Positions 18,747-63,924 of a stretch of DNA of 64,000 nucleotides are shown one piece after another. The stretch is from assembly GCA_012646185.1 (NCBI GenBank), contig GCA_012646185.1_4706.1, one strand, 5' to 3'. A program made the translations under genes and the position numbers. Numbering within the stretch: the first letter of the stretch is position 1; each line of letters opens with the position of its first letter. The notes beneath the pieces were generated by a model, which saw nothing but the letters and a program-made list of their open reading frames with translations, was not told where the DNA came from and searched no databases. This DNA comes from a phage.

Positions 18747-18784
18747 CAAATTTTTTCTATTCGCAACAATAAACGGCATAGAAA

Positions 18785-23630: not shown

Positions 23631-23957
23631 TTAACTTATTGTCATGAATTCATTAGGTGAAAATTTCCAGCCGTTCTCAGTGAGAAGCGTGTTGAGTTTC
23701 GCTGCAACGATAAGCCATGCATGCATGGCTGTTACATCGTATTGGCGATTCACTCGACGTTGGTTTTCGATATTGATTTGCTCCTGTTCAGTGATGTTTG
23801 GATAAAGTGCGATAGCGCTAGGTTTACCCAGCGCGCTAGTCATCACCGCCGTACATTCACTGATAATGTTGTTTAAGTGGTAGTTATACACCGTTCCACG
23901 CATGACGCGATGACGGCATTCGATAATAGCGTCGTAAATGATTTCTCGAGTAATCAT
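23631..23957 (-). CDS. hypothetical small protein (108 aa)
   Basis: ATG at 23955-23957; terminator downstream. Confidence 0.75.
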   Translation of the reverse strand: MITREIIYDAIIECRHRVMRGTVYNYHLNNIISECTAVMTSALGKPSAIALYPNITEQEQINIENQRRVNRQYDVTAMHAWLIVAAKLNTLLTENGWKFSPNEFMTIS

Positions 23958-25204: not shown

Positions 25205-25267
25205 TTATCACCTAGGTAATGTAGTCGCGAAATAAACTGGAGTAATGCGAAATAAGACAGCATAGAA
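25205..25267 (-). promoter_or_regulatory. conserved ~60-nt element, candidate phage promoter
   Basis: About 85% identical to 63861-63924; plus strand reads CACCTAGGTAATGTAGTCGCGAAATAAACTG...CGAAATAAGACAGCATAGAA. Confidence 0.35.
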
Positions 25268-30520: not shown

Positions 30521-30571
30521 CGCAGATTCCTGTTTGAAAGATAAGATATCACATGATGGTCGACAGCATAA

Positions 30572-30593
30572 AGCCCACCCCGAAGGGCGGGCT
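30572..30593 (-). terminator. hairpin AGCCCACCC-CGAA-GGGCGGGCT with GCATAAA/TTTATGC flanks
   Basis: Sits between the stop of the 1128-aa gene and the next start. Confidence 0.5.
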
Positions 30594-39167: not shown

Positions 39168-39215
39168 GTGTTGTCTCCAGTAATGATTCAAAAGATAAAC
39201 CTGAGCGGCATAGAA

Positions 39216-40592: not shown

Positions 40593-40656
40593 AATTTGTT
40601 TCCTTTACAATAAATTGCACATTAGCTAATGTGGCTTAAGTGAACCGTCAGCTCAC

Positions 40657-43232: not shown

Positions 43233-43266
43233 ATTGAAATCCTTATTTACAAATAAAGGAAAGAAA

Positions 43267-47531: not shown

Positions 47532-50500
47532 TTATCTTACGTTATTGCTGTTCTGCTGTTCGCTGAACCAACCGTACACCTTGAGATCGGTACCGTATTT
47601 CAATGCGATATACGCATTCAGTGCGGCACAGAACAAAGACGCGAATGCCCATATCAGCGAAGGATCAACATCTTCCGTTACCACCGGGAGAGTATTATCC
47701 GGTTCCCATGATGGAGAACTGTCCATGAACGTCGTGACCATTACTCGCCGTTGTTCTTCGGTGGTAAAGTCGCTATGAGGTTCCAACGCTTCTTTTGCCA
47801 GACGTCGATATTCGAACATATGCGTTGCTAAAGCCGATGAGTTACCAGATTCGCCTTCATAGTTCGGATCCACCGCATAACAGAGTTCTGTTGAATCTAA
47901 CAAAGCAACCGCCTGTGTGATGCTGTCGGCAGTGCCTGCACCATAGAGTTCGATAGACCGCGAAAGCTTCTCACAGAACGCATCCAACGCGGCAGGATTG
48001 GACACCTGAAGGTCAAGGCCTAATGTCCACGGATAGTTACTGAATACACCCGTAAACCGCGGCATAACACCCAACAGATGTTGTCCGATTACAGCACGGT
48101 TATAAACAGCCCGGTTATAGACTTGAAACGCAGCCTCCAAAGCTTGGTTATAATGACGACGAAGTTCGTCACGAGAGTTGCGGAACCTGTTTGCCGCAAG
48201 ACTCGTGGCTGCGACGCTACAAACATCGTAATTGGTGGACGAGAGCACAGTTTCGTTAAGATCGAACGCTTCCTGTTTCAACGATCCGCTAACCGCTGCT
48301 GCTTCGCTGTTTGCTTTATCGACAACAGTACTCAAAGCGTTGATGTAACGTTTAGCTCGGACTTCCAGCCATTGTGCGATGCCGAGAACATCCACAGCGG
48401 CTTTAGCAAGGTCACGCGCGTTCACGATTTCGTTCTTCAAGGCACCCAACCCTTTATTCTCAGGCGAAGAGGCTTGTTGACGAATCATGCTGTTTAACAT
48501 GGTAAGCAGATTATCCAACTCGTGCCCACTGACCTTGTTACGCGCATCGGTAATCGGCCCTTGCAGGAATTTACGGCAACCATCGTTGTATCGAATCAGT
48601 TTATCCACATCGATAGATTCGTTCGTGGATTCCTTGAACTGATCCTTCAATTCTTCACGGTAGTCATGGATTTCACTTGCGAGATTATCGATAGTGATAC
48701 CATCATGTCCAAGAAGAACTTTATTGAAGTTACCTTTCTCGAATGCCAGAGCAAGACCTTCACGAATCTTAGCGAGTTTATCCTGATCAAGTTCACGACC
48801 GTTCGATAGCTCTTTCACTTCCGAGCTGATTAATGCCGAAACGTTACCCAGATTGTCGGTAACCCCTTTGAACGCTCCCGACCAGATCGTTCCTGCTTCA
48901 GCGTATTTCGCAATGGTCTGAATACCGACGGTGTGCAGCGACGCTAAACGTTTCTTCGTGCCTTCGGTAAGCAGAGCGTCTTTAGCTCGCGTAAGCTGGC
49001 TGTTATTAGCTTCCGCCTGCTGAATCGCTGCTTTCGCACTTCCATTACGCCAGCTCTTAACCAGCCAATCAACCAAACGTTTTAGGATGTTGACGGTATA
49101 TTCCATCGTCCGCCGTAACGTTTCCCACGCGCTTTCTGCGGTATAGATGCCGTACCCTTCCATCTTCAACGCTTTCAAGCTTGTTTGACGTGCCAGCCAT
49201 TCTACCGTTGCGGAACAAACGTTTACAAAGGCTTCCAGGTAGGTGTAATAGACGTCTGTTGCCGACGTTTCGTTGAACTTTGAATGCAGATAGAACTGAT
49301 CGTAAAGTTCGTCGTCATCGCCGAAGGCATCATAGTTCCACAGTTCTGTATCACAACCTGTACCGCAGAAGACGTCAGCTGTCGTAAACTCTTTAAGCGC
49401 TTTAGCTGCATCATTCGTCAGGAATTTACCCGTTTCGACTACATCGTCGACATTAAGCTTGGGGAGTTCGTCGGTGACTGGCTCTTCCAACATCAGCATA
49501 TTGAAGAATGTGCTGTACTTGTATCCGAGCCATTTTGGATAACTGCTTTCAGGGATCGTAGACAACGGCTTGATTTTCTTGGCTTCAGCCAATGTGTCTT
49601 TTGCGACCTGATATTGGTTTTCCCCAGCCTTGACGCGACGTAATGCTTTTTCTTCCAACTGCTTAAGCTTGGCATGGCGTGCTTGTGCTGGAGCTTCAAC
49701 AAGTTTTTGTACTGACCGCATTGCAGAAATCGCTTCTTTTAATACGATCATCGGCATACGAACTTTGCCGTCGTCGAAACTAAGAGCGCGAGCGACACGT
49801 TTACTTACGACAGGCTTATCATGGATATTTCGTTCCACCCATGATTTGTTTGCGTAAGTTTGAGCGATCTGCTGTTGGATATTTTCAAGGTATTTCCAGC
49901 CGTTGGAAGCTTTGTTATCCAGAAGCGGATTCGGTCCCTTCTTATCGAAAAGTTTCAGAATCGGACCAAAGAAACCTTCCTGTACGAGTTCGATACGCGT
50001 GTATCCGTCAGCCGCTTCGATTTCTTCTTGGGTTTTGTCCCAGAGCTGTTCACTACGGACAGCAGTAGCTGTTTCAGATACCGACATAACAAGCTCGGCA
50101 ACAACTTCAGCACAGGTCAGTACGGTACGCACGCATTGCACTAGCATACGCTGGTAAACGATACGTGCGTTTTGTAGACGTGCGATAACCGCTAAATAAC
50201 CGATATTGTCAAGACGTTCGTCGGCTTGAGCAGAGTCGACACGTTCTATCAGTTGTTTAACCAGCGCGGCTGTTTCCGGATAATCGTTCACGACGTCACG
50301 CATAATTCGTGATGCGAAAACCGCGGTACCTAAAACGTTAAGAAGTGTTTTACCGTCCCATTCTTTTGGTGTCGCTACCGATTCGGTAGGGATGAGATTT
50401 CCCGCTTGATCGAAGTATGGCATAAGGACATTGATATCCGTAGACGGTACTGCGGTGATTGCGTTGTACTCTTCATCCGCACCATCGTTGCCAGACGGCT

Positions 50501-51137
50501 GTAATGCAAGTGCTTGTTCAAGGATTTTGCGGTCAACAGCATAAAGCGCCGACAGAGCCTGTGTTACCGCAACCAGATCAACGATCGGCGACCAGAGCTG
50601 TGCGAGCTTACCTTCGTATTTCTGTACAGCGATAGCAAGGTCTTCTTTTACGTCAGGATGATTGATTAAACCACCCAGCGCTTCATGGATTGCAGAAAAA
50701 CGTTCAGAATGTGCTTGAGTTAATGCAACAAAATCGTCAACGTACGATGCATTTTCTTCAAGGCGTGCAAGTTCCTGCTCCAGAAGATCTTTTACTTGCG
50801 TGGCGGATGCGTTTCTCAGCTGTTCCCCGATAATCGCGATGGCTTTATCGACAACACGACAAGCTTCATTGAAGCCTGTCGTTGAAGGTAACTCGGTCCA
50901 TAATGCCAGCGGCTTACCTTCCATTGCGTCAGGAAGGGAATATGACAACATTGCTAGTTGTTGACGTGATACCTGTTTGTCACGATGTAACGTTTCTTTC
51001 AACGCCAGAAGCTCATCAAGACCCACACTGCTAGGGATCGTGGGATGTGATACGGCGTTGATATTTTCTGTCAATGACTCAAGAACCAATAAACCATTTT
51101 CAGCGGAAGATAACCCTGCTTTAAGGTATTTGTTCAT
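47532..51137 (-). CDS. giant protein (1201 aa); shares ELVQEGF-type motif with the 930-aa and family B proteins
   Basis: ATG at 51135-51137 with ACGGAG ribosome-binding site. Confidence 0.85.
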   Translation of the reverse strand: MNKYLKAGLSSAENGLLVLESLTENINAVSHPTIPSSVGLDELLALKETLHRDKQVSRQQLAMLSYSLPDAMEGKPLALWTELPSTTGFNEACRVVDKAIAIIGEQLRNASATQVKDLLEQELARLEENASYVDDFVALTQAHSERFSAIHEALGGLINHPDVKEDLAIAVQKYEGKLAQLWSPIVDLVAVTQALSALYAVDRKILEQALALQPSGNDGADEEYNAITAVPSTDINVLMPYFDQAGNLIPTESVATPKEWDGKTLLNVLGTAVFASRIMRDVVNDYPETAALVKQLIERVDSAQADERLDNIGYLAVIARLQNARIVYQRMLVQCVRTVLTCAEVVAELVMSVSETATAVRSEQLWDKTQEEIEAADGYTRIELVQEGFFGPILKLFDKKGPNPLLDNKASNGWKYLENIQQQIAQTYANKSWVERNIHDKPVVSKRVARALSFDDGKVRMPMIVLKEAISAMRSVQKLVEAPAQARHAKLKQLEEKALRRVKAGENQYQVAKDTLAEAKKIKPLSTIPESSYPKWLGYKYSTFFNMLMLEEPVTDELPKLNVDDVVETGKFLTNDAAKALKEFTTADVFCGTGCDTELWNYDAFGDDDELYDQFYLHSKFNETSATDVYYTYLEAFVNVCSATVEWLARQTSLKALKMEGYGIYTAESAWETLRRTMEYTVNILKRLVDWLVKSWRNGSAKAAIQQAEANNSQLTRAKDALLTEGTKKRLASLHTVGIQTIAKYAEAGTIWSGAFKGVTDNLGNVSALISSEVKELSNGRELDQDKLAKIREGLALAFEKGNFNKVLLGHDGITIDNLASEIHDYREELKDQFKESTNESIDVDKLIRYNDGCRKFLQGPITDARNKVSGHELDNLLTMLNSMIRQQASSPENKGLGALKNEIVNARDLAKAAVDVLGIAQWLEVRAKRYINALSTVVDKANSEAAAVSGSLKQEAFDLNETVLSSTNYDVCSVAATSLAANRFRNSRDELRRHYNQALEAAFQVYNRAVYNRAVIGQHLLGVMPRFTGVFSNYPWTLGLDLQVSNPAALDAFCEKLSRSIELYGAGTADSITQAVALLDSTELCYAVDPNYEGESGNSSALATHMFEYRRLAKEALEPHSDFTTEEQRRVMVTTFMDSSPSWEPDNTLPVVTEDVDPSLIWAFASLFCAALNAYIALKYGTDLKVYGWFSEQQNSNNVR

Positions 51138-51218: not shown

Positions 51219-54011
51219 TTACGCTAATTTACCGAAACCGGCCTTCTGTAGTTTCTCGTTGATCAGTTTTGCTTCAGCGAAAACATAATCACGATACGCA
51301 GTGACTAATCCGTCCACCCGTGAACGCAAGGCTTCTTCGAAGCTATACCACGCAGCGATTTCACGAATCTGTGCGTTGATATAATCAACGGTTGAGCGAA
51401 GCTCGGTTGCGTTTTCTTGCGGAATGGCTTTCACCTGGCGAGCAACGTCATTTAAACGACGGAACTGTGTTTCGATTTCTTTAAACTTACTGTCAGCAAG
51501 TTTGCTGAATTCGTCACCGGAACGGGTAAATAACAGATAGCTGTTGCCGTCAAGTGCGGTCGCTAACTGCTGAAGTACGTTGGTGTCCGGATACACAGGA
51601 GTACCGCTTTGCAATACTTTCTCACCGAATTCCGCGAAGTCCTTCGGCGGTAAGTGTGCAGACGTTGTCAATTCGTTGAAACGGAAAGTCAGCGAACTAT
51701 CATACAACATCCGGTACGCTTCCATACCCTGTTTCATGGTACCGGCCAGGTTAGCCAGACGCGGAGCAATCTCGCCTTCTTTAGCGCGTTTCTGGTCTTC
51801 TAACGCCCCTTCGAGTTCTTTACACTGGTCGTTCAGATACACGATACGATCGGGACGCAGACGACGCATCTCACGAAGAATGGTATCCAGCTTACCTTCC
51901 TGGAAATAACCTAACGTTAAAGACGTACACGCTTGCTGAAGACGATCGAAGACCGGTAAGGTTACCATCTCCTTACGGATACCATCAACAATCGCAGAAA
52001 CAGCCGAAAGTTTCTGTTCTGTAGTCAATGGAACATCAGAGGCCGACTTGCTGGGCGCACCAACAACGTTACGCATTGCGTCGGTATCCTCGGTTTTATC
52101 AACCTCTTTACGAACATGCTCATCAGGAACATAAACGTTAGCATTACGTTTCGCCTGCTTGATAGCATCGCTGGCCGCTTTTTCGGTGGCCGCTACGCTA
52201 TCGGCACGTTTCTTCAAGAGTTCAATAATCCAGAGCACCAGACGACGAATCGCAGTGTAGGCTGTCGTGATGATGACGCCGATAACAGCCATCTTCATGA
52301 TACCGAACGATTCCATGGTCGGCTCTAACGCTTGGTCTGGCATATACCGTTCACGCAGTTCCAGATAGATCTGCTCATCTGGTTTGCTGACCTCACCACG
52401 ATGCGAAGTACGATAGATGGCTTCGTCAATCTCAACAAGATCTTTGCGGGCCTGGCGATCGGATTCTGTTAAGTAAGCACAACCGGATACATCATCTTCG
52501 AAGCTTAAGAATTTGAAAAAGTCACTGACGTCGATCTTGATCTTCTTCGCTTCATTGTCAACGTTAATGAAATCCGTTTTACGAGACTGCTGTTGAATCT
52601 TAATATCCTTTATCGGTTTAAGCGCTTTGTCTTTTAATGCCTGCATGATCTGTTTCCAGCTGGCATCGCGTTCAAGAACAAGGAAATAGTTCTTGAGTTC
52701 GAATGCGCGATAGCGGACAACAAGTTGTTCTACCTGGACATGAGCGAGTTGTACGTCCATCAGCCAACGCGACAGCGCAGAAACCAAACGGCTATACGCA
52801 AGCAGCGTCTGGTACGTCAGCTTCATGTGTTTCTCGTAGAGCTCAATGTCTCCGCCCTGGATGTCGGCTGTCGGGTTCATTTCCTTCGTTGCTTTGAAGA
52901 CTTGTTCGGCTTCATTCAGCATTTGCTCAAACTTGACTTCATTGAACGCGTTGAATGGTTCGGCCAGTTCGTTCATCCGATCGTGTAGTTCGCGAACCCA
53001 AGCTTCTTTGTGATTACGAATGACCGCATCAGCGTGGAGTTCGGTTTGATGTTTCTGTACCCATTCTTCAATGATATCCGCAGCTGCAACAACACCTGTG
53101 TTGTCAGAAATCAATGGGATGACGTTAGAGAGCGTACCCGCACATGCTGGCGTTTTCCAATGATCATTAAGTGTGTTGCGGAACGTAATGATGTCCGTCA
53201 TTGACGTAGTGATATCGAGGAACGTGTTACCGTTACGACTCATGCTTGTGATGTTTGTGGCAAACGTCTTTTGTTGTTCTACAACGAATGGAATCAACGC
53301 CATCAACCAATCAGCAATACACTGTGCTTTTTCTTTCAGGTTTTTGTCGGCGATTTCTTTGAGATTAATTGCGCCGCCGTACCCCGCAAGTTCGTTATAC
53401 ACATCGTTCAAGGTCATCTGCGCATCAAGCATTTCTTTGAAACGCGGATAATCTTCCCCTAACGCATCGATGATATCCTGGATAACGTCGTCGGTTGTAG
53501 CGATAAATTTCTTCGTGTCGACTTTAGATTTCCAGATTATTTTCACCGCTTCTTTCATAACGGTGAACATGATCTGCCAAATACGCTTAATAAGTTCCCA
53601 GACTTTCTTCGCACCATCGACAAACAGTTTAGAGATCTTGGCAACGAATCCTTCCTGCACTAACTCAACGCCGTTACGTGATGGGATTTCCGTGAAGAAA
53701 GCATCCGGCAGTTGTTTCGGGAATGCGTCACCAAGACGCATACGCAGTTCCGGTACATCAGCACGAGAAATACCGCGTGTTACTAATTGTTCGTGAAGAC
53801 GAACGTTTTCTTCACCAGCAGCCACGAATTCATTAACGTCGAAGGAGACCATTGCTTCCTGATCTTCGGTGGTAACAACGCTTGAACCGTCGCTGGTTTG
53901 GATGTCTTCGTCAGGGAACGCCATGAGCATACCGTGACGCATTTCAACCACTCCGTAATCGGTTGCTAAACCGAATTCGTTGTGGTCGGGAGTAATAACT
54001 GGGATACTCAT
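51219..54011 (-). CDS. large protein (930 aa)
   Basis: ATG at 54009-54011 overlapping the upstream TGA; contains VELVQEGFVAKISKLF. Confidence 0.85.
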   Translation of the reverse strand: MSIPVITPDHNEFGLATDYGVVEMRHGMLMAFPDEDIQTSDGSSVVTTEDQEAMVSFDVNEFVAAGEENVRLHEQLVTRGISRADVPELRMRLGDAFPKQLPDAFFTEIPSRNGVELVQEGFVAKISKLFVDGAKKVWELIKRIWQIMFTVMKEAVKIIWKSKVDTKKFIATTDDVIQDIIDALGEDYPRFKEMLDAQMTLNDVYNELAGYGGAINLKEIADKNLKEKAQCIADWLMALIPFVVEQQKTFATNITSMSRNGNTFLDITTSMTDIITFRNTLNDHWKTPACAGTLSNVIPLISDNTGVVAAADIIEEWVQKHQTELHADAVIRNHKEAWVRELHDRMNELAEPFNAFNEVKFEQMLNEAEQVFKATKEMNPTADIQGGDIELYEKHMKLTYQTLLAYSRLVSALSRWLMDVQLAHVQVEQLVVRYRAFELKNYFLVLERDASWKQIMQALKDKALKPIKDIKIQQQSRKTDFINVDNEAKKIKIDVSDFFKFLSFEDDVSGCAYLTESDRQARKDLVEIDEAIYRTSHRGEVSKPDEQIYLELRERYMPDQALEPTMESFGIMKMAVIGVIITTAYTAIRRLVLWIIELLKKRADSVAATEKAASDAIKQAKRNANVYVPDEHVRKEVDKTEDTDAMRNVVGAPSKSASDVPLTTEQKLSAVSAIVDGIRKEMVTLPVFDRLQQACTSLTLGYFQEGKLDTILREMRRLRPDRIVYLNDQCKELEGALEDQKRAKEGEIAPRLANLAGTMKQGMEAYRMLYDSSLTFRFNELTTSAHLPPKDFAEFGEKVLQSGTPVYPDTNVLQQLATALDGNSYLLFTRSGDEFSKLADSKFKEIETQFRRLNDVARQVKAIPQENATELRSTVDYINAQIREIAAWYSFEEALRSRVDGLVTAYRDYVFAEAKLINEKLQKAGFGKLA

Positions 54012-54448
54012 GCATTCTCTCCTTGCAGTGCGTTAGCGAAAGCCGTTGCAAGTTGTGCAACCAGTTTCGGATCAACGCCTTCGATAACGTCAGGCAGCCC
54101 TGCGGTTTCTTGGTCACGAACAGCGGAGGCTAATAACAGCATGGTTTCAGGTGCGGTTGGCTCATGCACCATGCGGTAACGCAGGCACCAGAAGTAGCGA
54201 GCAACGTCTAACGCATCAGCCAGCCCAATAACCAGCACCTTGTTCAGCTTATCCAACCCTTCACGGATTTTAGGGAGATGTTCACGAACGAAAATGCTAT
54301 CTGCGGTCAGATCTTCTTTTTCAGCGAATACGGGCATGCTGTAACCAGCGATATAACCTGCGGCAATACTTAGCGCACGGGTCTGTTGTTCGGCTGGGAA
54401 ATCACGTACCAGGTCTTTCAGCTGAACGGCGAAATCAGAAATATTCAT
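54008..54448 (-). CDS. hypothetical protein (146 aa)
   Basis: ATG at 54446-54448. Confidence 0.8.
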   Translation of the reverse strand: MNISDFAVQLKDLVRDFPAEQQTRALSIAAGYIAGYSMPVFAEKEDLTADSIFVREHLPKIREGLDKLNKVLVIGLADALDVARYFWCLRYRMVHEPTAPETMLLLASAVRDQETAGLPDVIEGVDPKLVAQLATAFANALQGENA

Positions 54449-54481: not shown

Positions 54482-55792
54482 TTACGCGACGACAGAGTCG
54501 AGTTTCGCTGACACTTTGAACAGATCGTTGTTCATTGTGGAAGAAAGGACTTGTTGAATTTCTTCCTGTTTAACGGCTTTACGAACCCCAGGACGAAGGA
54601 TAAGCGTAACCATCTGTGAAAAGGTACGATTATTGTTCATCGCACTCAGCGTTTCATCGATTGTTTTGATGGTATCCAGCGTCATGGAACGAACATCGCT
54701 TGGGATATCACGATCTTTCAAGCGTATAATTAAATCTTGTTTGATTTTACGGAATCGTTCCATGTCGTTATCGTAAATGCTGTATGTTGGATCTAACCAA
54801 ACAGAAAGCGCGGTTACGGCCACAACAACCAACACACCGATAGCGCCAACAGAAGCTAAACCTATCGCCATCATAGAGGCTATAGTAGCATCCATGATGA
54901 AGGAGAGCCAGAACATCGTTTTGGACTTCATGGAGTTGGTGCCATAAAGCCGATACATTTTAGCAAGCCCGCTAACGAGATACTCCCCACTACCGTGACG
55001 CGTAGCGAACTGATCAGCCATGAATTCGGAAGCAACGTCAGTGTATCGACCAGCATTGTTTACATTTCGTAACTGCATTGCTCTGTTAGACACGTAAACC
55101 GTGTACCAGACACTACCATCGTCTGAATCACTGATTTTGTCTACGTCAACGTTGGTATCCAACGTTTTGTTTAACGCTTTCGCCAGTTCGATACGTTTTA
55201 CCTTATCGGTTGTTCCCAACAGTTCACGCTGTACGGTCATGATCGAGGCTTCGACACGAACCGTTTCTGATAATGTTTCAAGGAAAGTAAATGCGTGCCC
55301 GATTTCATGCAGCATTATGGCTGCTTTTTCTTCCGGAAGAAAGGGTTCTGTCGCTGTTAGCAGTTCATACGTGATGGCAGAACGAATCTTCAACTCCTCA
55401 AAGATACCGTAAACACGACCTTTTTCTAAATCGACGTAACCGACAGGTGCATCTTTAATCTTCTTAAGGAGTGCGACACCATCAGCACCACGCATCCATA
55501 ACCGATGATAGTCCGCCAGGATCGTGTTGTTTGTCGAAATATCCGGTGGGTACACGTAGGCGTTCATCTGGCCCATTTTCATGTCGACCGAGAATTCGAT
55601 GTTCAACCCCGTATAGCGTTTAACCATCTCGGTTAAACGACCGTCCTTGAAAACGTTTAAAACCTCTTTTTTATCCAGTCCCTGTTTGCTTCTGAAGAAC
55701 TCGGTCATTTCCTTGAACAAGGAACCATCTTGAAACTTGATGGCTTCCATCGTTAATTCGTCATGACCATACACGCGTTGTAGTAATGACAT
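54482..55792 (-). CDS. putative zinc metallopeptidase (HExxH) with hydrophobic membrane segment (436 aa)
   Basis: MLHEIGHAF motif with Glu residues downstream; ~40-aa hydrophobic stretch FWLSFIMDATIASMMAIGLASVGAIGVLVVVAVTALSVWL. Confidence 0.8.
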   Translation of the reverse strand: MSLLQRVYGHDELTMEAIKFQDGSLFKEMTEFFRSKQGLDKKEVLNVFKDGRLTEMVKRYTGLNIEFSVDMKMGQMNAYVYPPDISTNNTILADYHRLWMRGADGVALLKKIKDAPVGYVDLEKGRVYGIFEELKIRSAITYELLTATEPFLPEEKAAIMLHEIGHAFTFLETLSETVRVEASIMTVQRELLGTTDKVKRIELAKALNKTLDTNVDVDKISDSDDGSVWYTVYVSNRAMQLRNVNNAGRYTDVASEFMADQFATRHGSGEYLVSGLAKMYRLYGTNSMKSKTMFWLSFIMDATIASMMAIGLASVGAIGVLVVVAVTALSVWLDPTYSIYDNDMERFRKIKQDLIIRLKDRDIPSDVRSMTLDTIKTIDETLSAMNNNRTFSQMVTLILRPGVRKAVKQEEIQQVLSSTMNNDLFKVSAKLDSVVA

Positions 55793-55803
55793 TGTACACT
55801 CTC

Positions 55804-55821
55804 TAAATTTACGTAAATTTA
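55804..55821. promoter_or_regulatory. perfect 18-bp palindrome TAAATTTACGTAAATTTA in divergent intergenic region
   Basis: 12 nt upstream of the metallopeptidase start codon, inside the 220-nt gap before the polymerase gene; operator or leader hairpin. Confidence 0.35.
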
Positions 55822-56013
55822 AGGGCTAATGGATCGGCTGGCCGCACCAATCACAATGTGTCCGCTGCTATGCAACGGCATTCATAGAAATACCTTTTGA
55901 CGGTAACATCACCCATCACACCCCAAGCAATAAGAGTGGTCGGTTAAAAACAACAGAACGTGGGGATGATATAGAAAATCACCTTTTAACACTTATTACG
56001 AGTTTATCAAGCC

Positions 56014-57513
56014 ATGAGCGAACAAGAACGAAAACCTAAGAAGAAACTGCTCGGTATTCAATGTCGACACATCAGCTATAACGAAGCGAACGACGGCAGC
56101 AAGAACGACCTCATGATCGCAAAAGAGATCATGTTCTTTGATGACAATACGCAAGCGACGAACCTTCGCTTCTTTGAGAATTACAAACGTCCGTTTTGGG
56201 TGACGGTAGAGAGTAAACGTAAGAACAAATATAAAAAGGAAAGCGAGAAGCTCTCGCATGTGCGTCGCTATGATGTCCGCCAAAGTGAACTGGTTGAAAA
56301 GATCAGTTCGGTGCTTTATAAAAGACGTGCTGACGATAACACCCGTTTACAGCAGCTTGCACGGAGTCCATACCTCTACGGCACGGACGTTAGCGCCAGC
56401 TGTTATTTAAAAACCCAGTACAACACAAAATGGCCGGAATACGTCGATAAATTACCCGCTTCCATTGCCTGTTTCGATATCGAAACCGACGTTGTCCATG
56501 GACATGGTAAGATCGTTTGTATGTCTATTACAATGGGATACAATGCGATACTTTGCTATACCAAGGACTTCGTTGGTCATATTCCGAATGCGATTGAGAA
56601 AACCCATGAGAAGATTCGATATTACCTGGCCGAACGTCTGAATACCAAAGAAGATCCTCATGCGTTCGAAAAATATCAGTACGATGTGCGAATCGTAGAA
56701 AGTCCGGCACAAGCAGTCATCCAATGCATGCAGAAGGTTCACGAATGGCAGCCGGATTATCTCCTTGGCTGGAATATCGCGTTCGATATTCCGCGCATGC
56801 TCCAGGCACTGAACGAGGAAGGGTATCGTCCCGAGGATGTTTTCTCCGATCCTCGTGTACCCCCTAAGTATCGTATTGCTCGCTGGGTACCACCGAAGAC
56901 CGACAAGGTATCTGCTTCAGGCCGTAAAACCAACCTTACCCTCGAGCAGACCTGGCCGATGTTTTATACGATGGCTACGTATCAGGTTATGGATGCGATG
57001 TGTGGTTATAAGTTCGTTCGTTTAGGAAGACCGGATGAGGGACGCTATTCACTCGATGCGGTGTTAGAGCGTAATAAATGCCATACGAAATTAAAAGCGA
57101 TTCCTGGTACAGAAGGGTTCACGGAGCTCGCCTGGCACGAAGAGATGCAAACGAACCATCAAATCGACTACGGCGTATATAACCTTTGGGATAACCAAGG
57201 TATTGAGGCGTTGGACCAGAAAACAAAAGACTATTCGATGACCATCCCGATTCGTTTAGCGGCGTCGGATTTGAAAGATTTCAGTTCCAACCCTAAACGT
57301 ATCTGCGATAAACTTTTCTTCGTGTATCTTAACCGTGGGGAAGTCATGGGATGCACCGCCGACGACATGACCCAGGAAGAAGATAAGTGGGTTATCTCAC
57401 GAACCGGACATATCGTCACATTACCATGCGATCTCATGGCGGACAACGGCATTCATCTCTTCTGGGATATGCCTAATTTAAGGAGCTATATTCGATTATT
57501 TGTTGCGGATTAA
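56014..57513 (+). CDS. family-B DNA polymerase, N-terminal/3'-5' exonuclease part (5' exon plus read-through to in-intron stop)
   Basis: Exo I FDIETD, Exo II GWNIAFDIP, Exo III YNLWD in T4-like order and spacing; no polymerase motifs A/B/C; ORF ends at the start of the intron region. Confidence 0.75.
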   Translation: MSEQERKPKKKLLGIQCRHISYNEANDGSKNDLMIAKEIMFFDDNTQATNLRFFENYKRPFWVTVESKRKNKYKKESEKLSHVRRYDVRQSELVEKISSVLYKRRADDNTRLQQLARSPYLYGTDVSASCYLKTQYNTKWPEYVDKLPASIACFDIETDVVHGHGKIVCMSITMGYNAILCYTKDFVGHIPNAIEKTHEKIRYYLAERLNTKEDPHAFEKYQYDVRIVESPAQAVIQCMQKVHEWQPDYLLGWNIAFDIPRMLQALNEEGYRPEDVFSDPRVPPKYRIARWVPPKTDKVSASGRKTNLTLEQTWPMFYTMATYQVMDAMCGYKFVRLGRPDEGRYSLDAVLERNKCHTKLKAIPGTEGFTELAWHEEMQTNHQIDYGVYNLWDNQGIEALDQKTKDYSMTIPIRLAASDLKDFSSNPKRICDKLFFVYLNRGEVMGCTADDMTQEEDKWVISRTGHIVTLPCDLMADNGIHLFWDMPNLRSYIRLFVAD

Positions 57514-57606: not shown

Positions 57607-58743
57607 ATGTTGGAACATCTTGAACATTTAGACAATGAATACTTAAATTTCACCAATCGTCGTTATCGTATCTTCGAAGACGGTACACTTTACGATTACA
57701 AAGAGAATTGTAAAGTACCTGTTATAATAGAAGATAACAACTCTTACGTTATTATCGATTGGTATCGTGGGGTTGGTAAATACGAATTGGGGATGATCAT
57801 GCTTACAGCATTTGATCGCATCCACATTCCTAACTATCTTTACGATGAAATTGAATCGTTGTTTATTGATAACGACCCGACGAACTTTTCGTATAGTAAC
57901 CACATCTATCGTTTCCGTAATGGACCGCTGGCTGTGGAAGGGTATCCGGGATATTACTACATCCCGTTTGCCACGTACTATGCGCTAAATGAACAAGGTG
58001 AATGTTTAAGTCTTTTGTCTGGGGAAGGTATAACGTGGACAATGACGCAGCAAAACGGTACGCGGCGTCCCGGCTATCGATACAGAAAGGTAACACCTGA
58101 TAGCGGTTTTACGGCTCAGCTGTATCGTCATCGAGCGATGATGTTGACGTTTCGTCGTTACGACGCAAGCGTTGTGGAAATGACCGTTAATCACAAGAAC
58201 GGTATTAAAGGCGATGATTGGCTGGATAACCTGGAATGGGCAACCTACAAGGAAAACAACAATCATGCGCGTATAAACGGTTTATGTGACGGCAAAGCGA
58301 AACCTATCAAGATCTTTGATTATAATCGTCATACCGAACGTCATTTCAAGAGCATCGCTGAGGCGGAACGTGCGTATCCACACGTAGCAAAAGGACGTTT
58401 CAAATGGTGGGTTGAAAATCCACCGAAACGTATACCTGAATGTAACCTCTACATCAAACATGCGTTCGATAATACTCCGTGGCCTGAATGGAAACTGGGT
58501 GATGAACGACGTATTGAAGATGTAGCGGGTATTCCGATTATCGCCCTTAACATGGTTACAGGCGAGAAACGAGTGTATTCATCGGTTACAGCTGCGGGTA
58601 AGGATACGAAAACAAGTTGGATAACAGTACGACGTCACTGTGATAAGCGTGTCGTTCCTGTTAAACAAGCATGGTGTTTCCGTTATGCTGACGACGTCAA
58701 AAACATGCCTGAGTTAACTTCCCTACCAACAATCGAACAGTAA
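57607..58743 (+). CDS. HNH homing endonuclease (378 aa)
   Basis: ATG start; motif VNHKNGIKGDDWLDNLEWATYKENNNHA (His-Asn-His); located inside the intron. Confidence 0.8.
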   Translation: MLEHLEHLDNEYLNFTNRRYRIFEDGTLYDYKENCKVPVIIEDNNSYVIIDWYRGVGKYELGMIMLTAFDRIHIPNYLYDEIESLFIDNDPTNFSYSNHIYRFRNGPLAVEGYPGYYYIPFATYYALNEQGECLSLLSGEGITWTMTQQNGTRRPGYRYRKVTPDSGFTAQLYRHRAMMLTFRRYDASVVEMTVNHKNGIKGDDWLDNLEWATYKENNNHARINGLCDGKAKPIKIFDYNRHTERHFKSIAEAERAYPHVAKGRFKWWVENPPKRIPECNLYIKHAFDNTPWPEWKLGDERRIEDVAGIPIIALNMVTGEKRVYSSVTAAGKDTKTSWITVRRHCDKRVVPVKQAWCFRYADDVKNMPELTSLPTIEQ

Positions 58744-63860: not shown

Positions 63861-63924
63861 TTATCACTAAGGTAATGTAGTCGTGAAATAAACTGCGTTA
63901 ACACGAAATAAAAACAGCATAGAA
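63861..63924 (-). promoter_or_regulatory. conserved ~60-nt element, candidate phage promoter
   Basis: About 85% identical to 25205-25267; about 70 nt upstream of the 63796 start. Confidence 0.35.

Follow-up and report, generated by a model that had tools for sequence, protein, structure and literature searches.

The window analysed here is a 64,000-nucleotide (nt) stretch of phage DNA (contig GCA_012646185.1_4706.1), by whose positions all coordinates are given, and our subject is an open reading frame (ORF) on its minus strand, 54482-55792, that encodes a predicted M48-like zinc metallopeptidase of 436 amino acids (aa), orthologous to Goslar gp067, ϕKZ gp84 and SPN3US gp45. An initial annotation had presented the gene as that of a membrane-anchored HExxH metallopeptidase with a perfect palindrome at its start; this picture of a membrane protease under palindrome control proved to be only partly right, and the main point that it missed is that the protein is a head protein, trimmed by the prohead protease. 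Between 54000 and 56100 the window is 92.3% identical in nt sequence to Escherichia phage vB_EcoM_Goslar, a nucleus-forming jumbo phage, in which the counterpart by synteny, gp067, is annotated as “hypothetical protein” and is 91.7% identical to the window protein. Ahead of the ATG, at a distance of 6 nt, is a Shine-Dalgarno sequence, GAGAG (55799-55803, minus strand), invariant in 15 Goslar-like sequences, and next to it stands the perfect 18-bp palindrome TAAATTTACGTAAATTTA (55804-55821, strand-neutral), whose outer edge, and not the end of the gene, is position 55821; the palindrome is 11 nt from the ATG (55793-55803), not the 12 first stated. The divergent spacer, estimated earlier at about 220 nt, measures 221 nt up to an N-terminal fragment of a family-B DNA polymerase on the plus strand (56014-57513; PHROG 3011, E 2.3e-150, with a weak DNA_pol_B_exo1 match). 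Downstream of the peptidase gene, and also on the minus strand, follow a gene for a 146-aa protein (54008-54448), recognized by synteny and by identity to Goslar as the homologue of Goslar gp66 and ϕKZ gp85, and a gene for a 930-aa protein (51219-54011), the homologue of Goslar gp65 and ϕKZ gp86.

The family to which the window protein belongs is a large one. The protein matches PHROG 2767, a function-unannotated family, over residues 12-432 (E 5.9e-84), and a tblastn search matched 245 phage records, of which all those listed were ϕKZ-type jumbo phages, with hosts that included Pseudomonas, Erwinia, Salmonella, Serratia, Vibrio, Ralstonia and Klebsiella. Most of the records are labelled “virion structural protein”, and a few are labelled “peptidase”, “beta-barrel assembly-enhancing protease” or “membrane protein”. 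The ϕKZ orthologue is PHIKZ084 (E 9e-15 for the ϕKZ-type match) and the SPN3US orthologue is the gene adjoining the polymerase (E 3e-16), which we equate with gp45 on the strength of the coordinate given for gp47 (PMC5694885), 44899, at which the third gene of the block begins; identity of the window protein to the SPN3US and ϕKZ proteins is only 23-27%. A profile of 27 diverse members retrieved 3,780 clusters (at 50% identity) from a representative library, 1,725 of them with E <1e-30, and the best 150 of the 3,780 cluster matches were nearly all full-length, at about 400-455 aa. Two library proteins, P0183 (1237 aa, match at 811-1230) and P0208 (839 aa, match at 410-836), carry the whole peptidase module at the C-terminal end of a longer chain, and are either natural fusions or gene-calling artefacts. 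The homology with SPN3US gp45, ϕKZ gp84 and Goslar gp067 is full-length, with the same HExxH...ExxAD residues and the same hydrophobic segment, and is accompanied by gp85/gp86 homologues downstream and, in most relatives, by the divergent DNA polymerase. These comparisons show that the ORF is the Goslar-type orthologue of this chimallivirus head protein. The gene adds a close member to a virion-protein family already known, for which the peptidase label already exists in a few database records; what public data add is the M48-type assignment on several independent lines, the conserved hairpin and the mapped mature N-terminus of the Goslar protein.

Evidence that the protein is packaged comes from Goslar, whose protein is 92% identical, and from SPN3US gp45, the window protein being known from its sequence. 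In SPN3US, gp45 is a head protein and a substrate of gp245, the prohead protease, and loses a 20-residue N-terminal propeptide (PMC5694885, PMC10052503) that its authors compared to the capsid-targeting sequences (CTSs) of T4 (PMC5694885). In Goslar, gp067 (YP_009820752.1) was detected in purified virions with 19 peptides and 46.8% coverage, and its copies per virion were estimated at 32-48-76, i.e., about 48 (2026 Goslar structure preprint, Table S4); the same table puts gp65 and gp42, vertex-complex proteins modelled at 55 copies, at 76-79. One of the Goslar virion peptides, AAIMLHEIGHAFTFLETLSETVR, spans the active site, and another, the semi-tryptic AIKFQDGSLFKEMTEFFR, begins at A17 after a Glu, that end being non-tryptic. 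The latter is direct evidence, in a 92%-identical protein, for the maturation cut predicted in the window protein after T-M-E16 (context L-T-M-E / A-I-K-F-Q), by which the prohead protease would remove codons 1-16 (55745-55792, minus strand) as an N-terminal propeptide. E16 hardly varies, and most of the 27 members have [S/A/G]-x-E at the corresponding site, which is the specificity known for the prohead proteases of these phages. It also aligns with A-S-E20 of SPN3US gp45, and both SPN3US and, from the peptide data, Goslar use an N-terminal prohead-protease site aligned with that of the window protein. Residues 1-16 are the only long disordered stretch of our AlphaFold2 model, with a predicted local distance difference test score (pLDDT) below 50. 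The Goslar protein is thereby shown to be packaged at roughly 50 copies per virion with A17 as its mature N-terminus. That the protein is not itself the prohead protease, as the initial annotation had recognized, is borne out by Goslar, where the head maturation protease is annotated separately, as gp212, elsewhere in the genome, and by the lack of any match to the S80 prohead protease (ϕKZ gp175/SPN3US gp245) in Pfam, PHROGs and NCBIfam. A role as a second maturation protease is also unlikely, since published accounts of SPN3US assign all 14 mapped head-protein cleavage sites to gp245.

The predicted catalytic residues are those of a zinc metalloprotease. The MLHEIGHAF that had drawn attention to the protein is located at residues 160-168, and the zinc-binding/catalytic motif within it, HEIGH (H162, E163, H166; 55295-55309, minus strand), sits in an active-site helix, predicted as residues 153-193 in the AlphaFold2 model, which was built on the family alignment (pLDDT 75.8; predicted template-modelling score, pTM, 0.77). 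The Glu residues reported to follow this motif are present, but they are not conserved, and the invariant candidate for the third zinc ligand is instead E256, in the ExxAD motif E256-F-M-A-D260 (55013-55027, minus strand). Ten positions are invariant in the 27-member alignment (G129, H162, E163, G165, H166, E256, D260, G267, Y340 and R346), and H162, E163, G165, H166, E256 and D260 are invariant also in a second alignment of nine named phages that include ϕKZ/Churi, SPN3US, PhiEaH1, RSF1, Special G, Phobos and sm033; all of the predicted catalytic residues are thus invariant in the aligned sequences. In M48 enzymes it is the Glu of a downstream ExxAD-type helix that binds the zinc. The family profile matches human ZMPSTE24 at both motifs and in the same order (E 0.003), with the E256/D260 stretch aligned to ZMPSTE24 412-442, “RRFEFQADAFA”. 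Pfam PF01435 (Peptidase_M48) gave weak matches for 15 of the 27 members (best E 3.7e-4) and no other family recurred, and the structural neighbours in BFVD, beyond “virion structural proteins” of jumbo phages, were a “Peptidase M48 domain-containing protein”, a “Beta-barrel assembly-enhancing protease” (BepA) and a “Zincin protease [Bacillus phage AR9]”. The model suggests, for the N-terminal two-thirds of the chain, an M48-type zinc metalloprotease fold, with a beta-sheet subdomain, the HExxH helix and the ExxAD helix. The earlier assignment to the zincins has held, and among the families then proposed (M48, M78 and ImmA-like) it is M48 that fits; that the gene encodes a packaged M48-like peptidase we regard as highly probable.

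The hydrophobic segment of about 40 aa that led to the description “membrane-anchored” is equally real. It comprises residues ~287-333 (54794-54934, minus strand), with a Kyte-Doolittle 19-residue maximum of 2.57 and 32 uncharged residues in a row, and in the model it folds as a hairpin of two helices (291-313 and 317-333) ahead of a helical C-terminal domain. A segment of this membrane type occurs at the same relative position in 27 of 27 members (Kyte-Doolittle maxima 1.7-2.9), and its sequence is not conserved. The M48 enzymes ZMPSTE24/Ste24p, BepA and HtpX (PF01435) share with the window protein the HExxH helix and the downstream Glu in the ExxAD helix. The window protein differs from them in having no N-terminal transmembrane helices and a single hydrophobic hairpin placed after the catalytic domain, in its C-terminal helical bundle of about 100 residues, which M48 enzymes do not have, and in belonging to a family whose members are carried inside a virus capsid and synthesized with a targeting peptide that is cleaved off.

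Taken together, these features led us to favour, with a probability of about one half, the explanation that the gene encodes a packaged, processed M48-like protease that may be delivered to the host and act at a membrane. The peptidase gene would be transcribed late, from a ϕKZ-type TATG start 91 nt upstream, and the 16-residue N-terminal peptide would act like a T4 capsid-targeting sequence to carry the protein into the prohead, where the S80 prohead protease would then remove it at T-M-E16. The mature enzyme would stay within the filled head, probably near the vertex-binding complex, and would most likely exit with the DNA at infection, whereupon the hairpin may enter the inner membrane or the membrane of the early-infection (EPI) vesicle and the enzyme may cleave a membrane-proximal host or phage protein. 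M48 enzymes are typically membrane-associated and act on membrane or envelope proteins. The last part of this scheme, injection and action at a membrane, we hold more tentatively, at somewhat less than an even chance. A more specific version, in which the injected protease puts its hairpin into the host inner membrane and cleaves a host or phage membrane protein there, a cleavage required for making, closing or subsequently opening the EPI vesicle in which chimallivirus DNA is sheltered until there is a protein nucleus, is speculative and on present evidence rather improbable. As to the host-takeover or anti-defence role raised by the initial annotation, it would have to come from the packaged, possibly injected, enzyme; we found no support for a role in lysis timing.

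Comparison with near relatives gave a hint of a host-facing role. In one related locus (L005, on the contig that carries P0018), identity to the window in nt sequence is 97.5% over the polymerase fragment, the spacer and the opening 102 nt of the peptidase gene, and the vertex-complex genes (gp66/gp65 homologues) are 84% identical, while the peptidase core, residues ~35-385 (window 54637-55690), has 47% protein identity and almost no blastn match, a divergence that looks like cassette replacement or fast evolution. The window protein and Goslar gp067, 92% identical overall, are strongly diverged in the hairpin segment: the hairpin codons (54750-54899) are the most variable part of the gene, at 67% nt identity, compared to 83-100% in the surrounding 150-nt bins. 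The divergence of the L005 core and the variability of the hairpin would favour, as far as sequence comparison goes, a host-facing over a purely structural role.

Other differences between near-identical genomes were seen close to the locus. After the polymerase N-terminal fragment is an HNH/NUMOD1 homing endonuclease gene (57607-58743) that has 55-76% identity to its Goslar counterpart between polymerase flanks of 94-99%, and because of that low identity between near-identical flanks we consider it a different allele at the same site. On the other side, the ORF at 47532-51137 (1201 aa) is the homologue of the 930-aa Goslar gp064, and within it about 1.7 kb (49168-50838) have no Goslar nt match, the result of an insertion or a replacement.

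The strongest competing explanation is that the protein resides in the capsid as an enzyme or a structural subunit, attached to the inner vertex-binding complex by way of a protein interface that buries its hairpin; it would act within the head, or do no more than stabilise the vertex, and would never be delivered. This is supported by the genomic neighbourhood. The order peptidase, gp85-like gene (~146 aa), gp86-like gene is kept in every relative examined, a set made up of the window, Goslar, SPN3US, Churi/ϕKZ, 7 further phages and 5 metagenomic contigs (in one of the relatives, L018, the syntenic gene has a weak match to PF25617, PhiKZ_gp86), and the two neighbours, Goslar gp66/ϕKZ gp85 and Goslar gp65/ϕKZ gp86, have been modelled in the capsid vertex-binding complex. 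The estimate of about 48 copies is near the 55 expected at one per vertex-complex unit, and the Goslar capsid map has unassigned density beside gp65. Against these points, the protein was not resolved in the high-resolution capsid maps of ϕKZ or Goslar, in which its neighbours were, and its short CTS-like propeptide is of the kind found on internal and ejected proteins. The strict conservation of the catalytic residues argues for an enzymatic role, the mapped SPN3US head-protein cleavages are attributed to gp245, and the core diverges much faster than the adjoining vertex-complex genes. We judge residence in the capsid to be somewhat less likely than injection, and the first alternative to consider.

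Several results weigh against the packaged and delivered protease that we favour. A capsid-resident protein associated with the vertex would account just as well for the copy number and the gene neighbourhood. The window protein falls under the Pfam gathering threshold for M48 (10.7 vs. 20.3 bits, E 0.46) and a whole-chain Foldseek search of the PDB gave nothing significant (E 0.9), and it is therefore termed M48-like and not a certified M48 member. At its cleavage site, P3 is Thr and not Ser, Ala or Gly. In the literature on gp84/gp45 we found no zinc-binding, proteolysis, membrane-insertion or injection experiment for any member. Transposon sequencing of ϕKZ recovered no disruptive insertions in PHIKZ084, yet this may be a polar effect, since orf85-86, which likewise lacked disruptive insertions, can be deleted. 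Finally, the late start is placed by analogy only, and the annotated spacers of PhiEaH1, Haymo, Phobos and sm033 contain no TATG.

The precedent for delivery is T4, whose internal head proteins are enzymes or inhibitors injected with the DNA; in Goslar, injection assays have been carried out for gp60, gp61, gp208 and gp209. As is predicted for the window protein, the T4 proteins IPI-III and Alt have a short N-terminal peptide ending in Glu that is removed by the prohead protease. They have no sequence relationship to the window protein, a predicted metalloprotease with a membrane-type hairpin, and we know of no T4 internal protein with such a hairpin. A second point of comparison is Bacillus phage AR9, another jumbo phage, which has both a virion and a non-virion RNA polymerase. 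Its two “zincin protease” paralogues (A0A172JHV9 and A0A172JI27) have predicted structures that match over most of the length (Foldseek E 8.5e-7 and 7.8e-5) with an identity of only 11-14%; no phage nucleus is formed by AR9 (PMC7598289). With regard to the membrane-bound early-infection vesicle, which nucleus-forming jumbo phages make and later quit by means of injected proteins that mostly lack an assignment, the family deserves attention: every chimallivirus that we examined has it, and it combines packaging at tens of copies per virion with an intact metalloprotease site, a membrane-type hairpin and no disruptive transposon insertions in ϕKZ. If the more specific version involving the EPI vesicle is true, the speed at which core and hairpin turn over from one near-identical phage to another would mirror adaptation to the host envelope or to defences bound to the membrane; if the protein is merely a vertex-associated capsid protein, the result is an ordinary one.

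A motif enriched in the non-coding DNA of Goslar bears on how the gene is expressed. In a k-mer analysis of this DNA, T[TC]TATG was counted 42 times where 14 were expected, mostly just behind a GC-rich terminator hairpin, and it recalls the late start of ϕKZ, with its consensus T-3 A T G+1 (PMC7598289), and the terminator motif of ϕKZ. On the peptidase strand a copy of it that has no terminator hairpin, TCTATG, lies at 55888-55883 and is a candidate late start of this type. The block around it, TCAAAAGGTATTTCTATGAATGCCGTTGC, is invariant in 14 aligned Goslar-like sequences, and in the fifteenth (L004) a deletion of 44 nt stops 10 nt short of TCTATG on its upstream side and takes away the first four bases of TCAAAAGGTATTTCTATGAATGCCGTTGC, leaving the motif and its downstream flank intact. 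TATG is also present upstream of the orthologue in L017-L019, SPN3US, ϕKZ/Churi and RSF1. By this analogy a late transcript likely starts at G55883, which corresponds to Goslar 79559, and has a 91-nt leader that encloses the palindrome; a literature search found no transcription-start data for Goslar. Close to the 5′ end of this putative mRNA is a stem-loop, GCCGUUGC-AUA-GCAGCGGAC (55860-55879, minus strand), with a folding energy of -10.7 kcal/mol (z -3.1, equalled by 2 of 200 shuffles), and three sequence variants keep the pairing on the peptidase-sense strand (U.G to U-A, and in L004 a stem of 7 bp that is shifted). The fold of the leader also paired CAUUGUG with the distant AUG region, an interaction that was rejected, as bases -3/-2 vary with no compensating change.

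The k-mer analysis of Goslar yielded a second signal class, and neither of the two is the palindrome. De novo k-mer enrichment gave tttCACGGCTATATTACttaNgtga as the early-promoter consensus of Goslar, with ATATTAC found upstream of Goslar genes in sense orientation 10 times against 0.8 expected, and its core, TATATTAC, agrees with what we take to be the early motif of ϕKZ. This consensus is absent from the peptidase/polymerase spacer, in which there was also no Rfam match, no sigma-70-like site and no terminator. Sites of the tttCACGGCTATATTACttaNgtga type in Goslar (L012-L016) are at 2560, 113790, 142793, 166062, 172971, 201937 and 226688, and one copy is upstream of the gene for chimallin, the nuclear shell protein. 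A divergent polymerase/peptidase pair is found in SPN3US, PhiEaH1, RSF1, Special G, Haymo, Phobos, sm033 and L017-L019, and in ϕKZ the divergent neighbour of the peptidase gene is not the polymerase. No regulator gene adjoins the peptidase locus.

The palindrome, which figured so prominently in the initial annotation, is a minor feature and of little consequence either way. The window contains two perfect 18-bp palindromes, the other being AGCCATGCATGCATGGCT (23713-23730), inside the ORF 23631-23957 on the minus strand, and first-order Markov simulations gave 0.275 such palindromes per window, with at least one in 25% of simulated windows, so that chance suffices to explain the palindrome taken alone; no more than modest support comes from where it lies and from its persistence in relatives. 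Of the two results named beforehand as counting against the initial annotation, HExxH outside a zincin fold and lack of the palindrome in related phages, half was obtained: the palindrome is missing from 11 of 11 more distant relatives. It is retained in 15 of 15 Goslar-like sequences, where a one-T insertion and a TAAA duplication, both at its edges, are the sole changes. The distant relatives have no equivalent, merely unrelated short palindromes such as TCTGTTCGAACAGA in sm033 and AAGGAATTCCTT in L018. The Goslar-like clade is shallow, with 13% of spacer columns variable among 14 aligned sequences, and 18 invariant columns have a p of ~0.08. An apparently exceptional conservation of the spacer (99% vs. 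92%) was discounted, as it belongs to a 94-100% block that extends over the polymerase fragment and into the peptidase gene for its first 100 nt.

Rather than an operator, the palindrome is most probably a passenger carried along in the leader, where it would form a weak A.U stem adjacent to the ribosome-binding site. That it has no function at all, being a chance or slippage-born A/T-rich inverted repeat that persists in a young clade, has in our estimation an even chance of being right: simulated windows often contain one, a second palindrome of the same type lies in coding sequence, the 18 invariant columns have a p of ~0.08, the only changes are slippage indels in A/T runs, and the sequence is unique in the Goslar genome and missing from distant relatives. 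The one observation that speaks against this comes from L004, an 83%-identical relative, in which 31 consecutive bases over the palindrome and the Shine-Dalgarno sequence are identical and the 40 nt upstream of them carry ~13 substitutions and indels. A function as an RNA element, a late-leader hairpin in which pairing of the flanking GCCCUU with GAGAG extends the base of the stem and tunes translation, perhaps with temperature, is doubtful. In the minimum-free-energy folds of all 3 natural variants, part of GAGAG does pair with CUU or C. None of the 15 sequences departs from CCCTT or GAGAG, while the bases just outside vary, the candidate TCTATG start places the palindrome within the leader, and inverted repeats with arms of 6 or more are found in the 45 nt before Goslar start codons about twice as often as in shuffles (22 of 241 genes vs. 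11.8 +/- 3.2). As RNA, however, the palindrome itself is an all-A.U stem of -1.8 kcal/mol, and the extended pairing reaches only -1.5 to -3.3 kcal/mol in the three variants (z -0.2 to -1.4), no better than shuffled sequence; one variant (L029) has a 4-nt insertion between CUU and the stem, the lack of substitutions means that there is no covariation, and the element does not occur outside the Goslar-like clade.

An operator is a good deal less probable still. The palindrome is single-copy in the 237-kb Goslar genome, with no other site within 4 mismatches, and half-site matches (at most one mismatch) are not enriched in non-coding DNA, where 8 of 53 occur, 4 of these 8 being the palindrome itself. 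This single-copy status, the absence from 11 relatives and the weakness of the RNA stem told against the original interpretation as an operator or translational hairpin. The broader proposal of a non-virion, membrane-anchored protease for takeover, lysis timing or anti-defence, controlled by a repressor on the palindrome in a promoter region common with the polymerase gene, can draw on the zincin fold, the hydrophobic segment and a palindrome retained by Goslar-like phages in a divergent spacer, but is very improbable for a protein that purified virions contain in abundance and that the head protease processes, from a spacer with neither the early consensus nor a sigma-70-like site, next to no regulator gene, and with a would-be operator that has no second copy, no enriched half-site and no counterpart in the more distant relatives.

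Two further ideas about the palindrome were tried and rejected. Its half-site, AAATTTAC, is not a general phage promoter resembling the A-rich/TAC motifs of ϕKZ, given that it is not enriched in Goslar non-coding DNA, and there is no common ACGT-centred palindrome upstream of several genes, as TACGTA is not enriched in non-coding DNA either. Other palindromes were nonetheless noticed in the window. One, CACATTAGCTAATGTG, is perfect over 16 bp (40618-40633) and precedes by 25 nt the homologue of gp058, which among the internal head proteins is the most abundant. Between the homologues of gp061 and gp062 is a divergent spacer of only 34 nt (43233-43266; GC 0.21) with a near-palindrome, CCTTATTTACAAATAAAGG, formed from two opposed Shine-Dalgarno sequences, which shows that short divergent spacers can yield palindromes without an operator.

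The window also contains, on its minus strand, five copies of a composite signal, at 63915-63923, 39206-39214, 30564-30572, 25258-25266 and 18774-18782, in each of which a GC-rich terminator hairpin with arms of the GGGAGAGG type is followed directly by T(T/C)TATG(C)(C/T)G. In Goslar no other non-coding motif is as strongly enriched as this composite. The arrangement suggests that termination and a ϕKZ-type TATG restart are coupled at one site.

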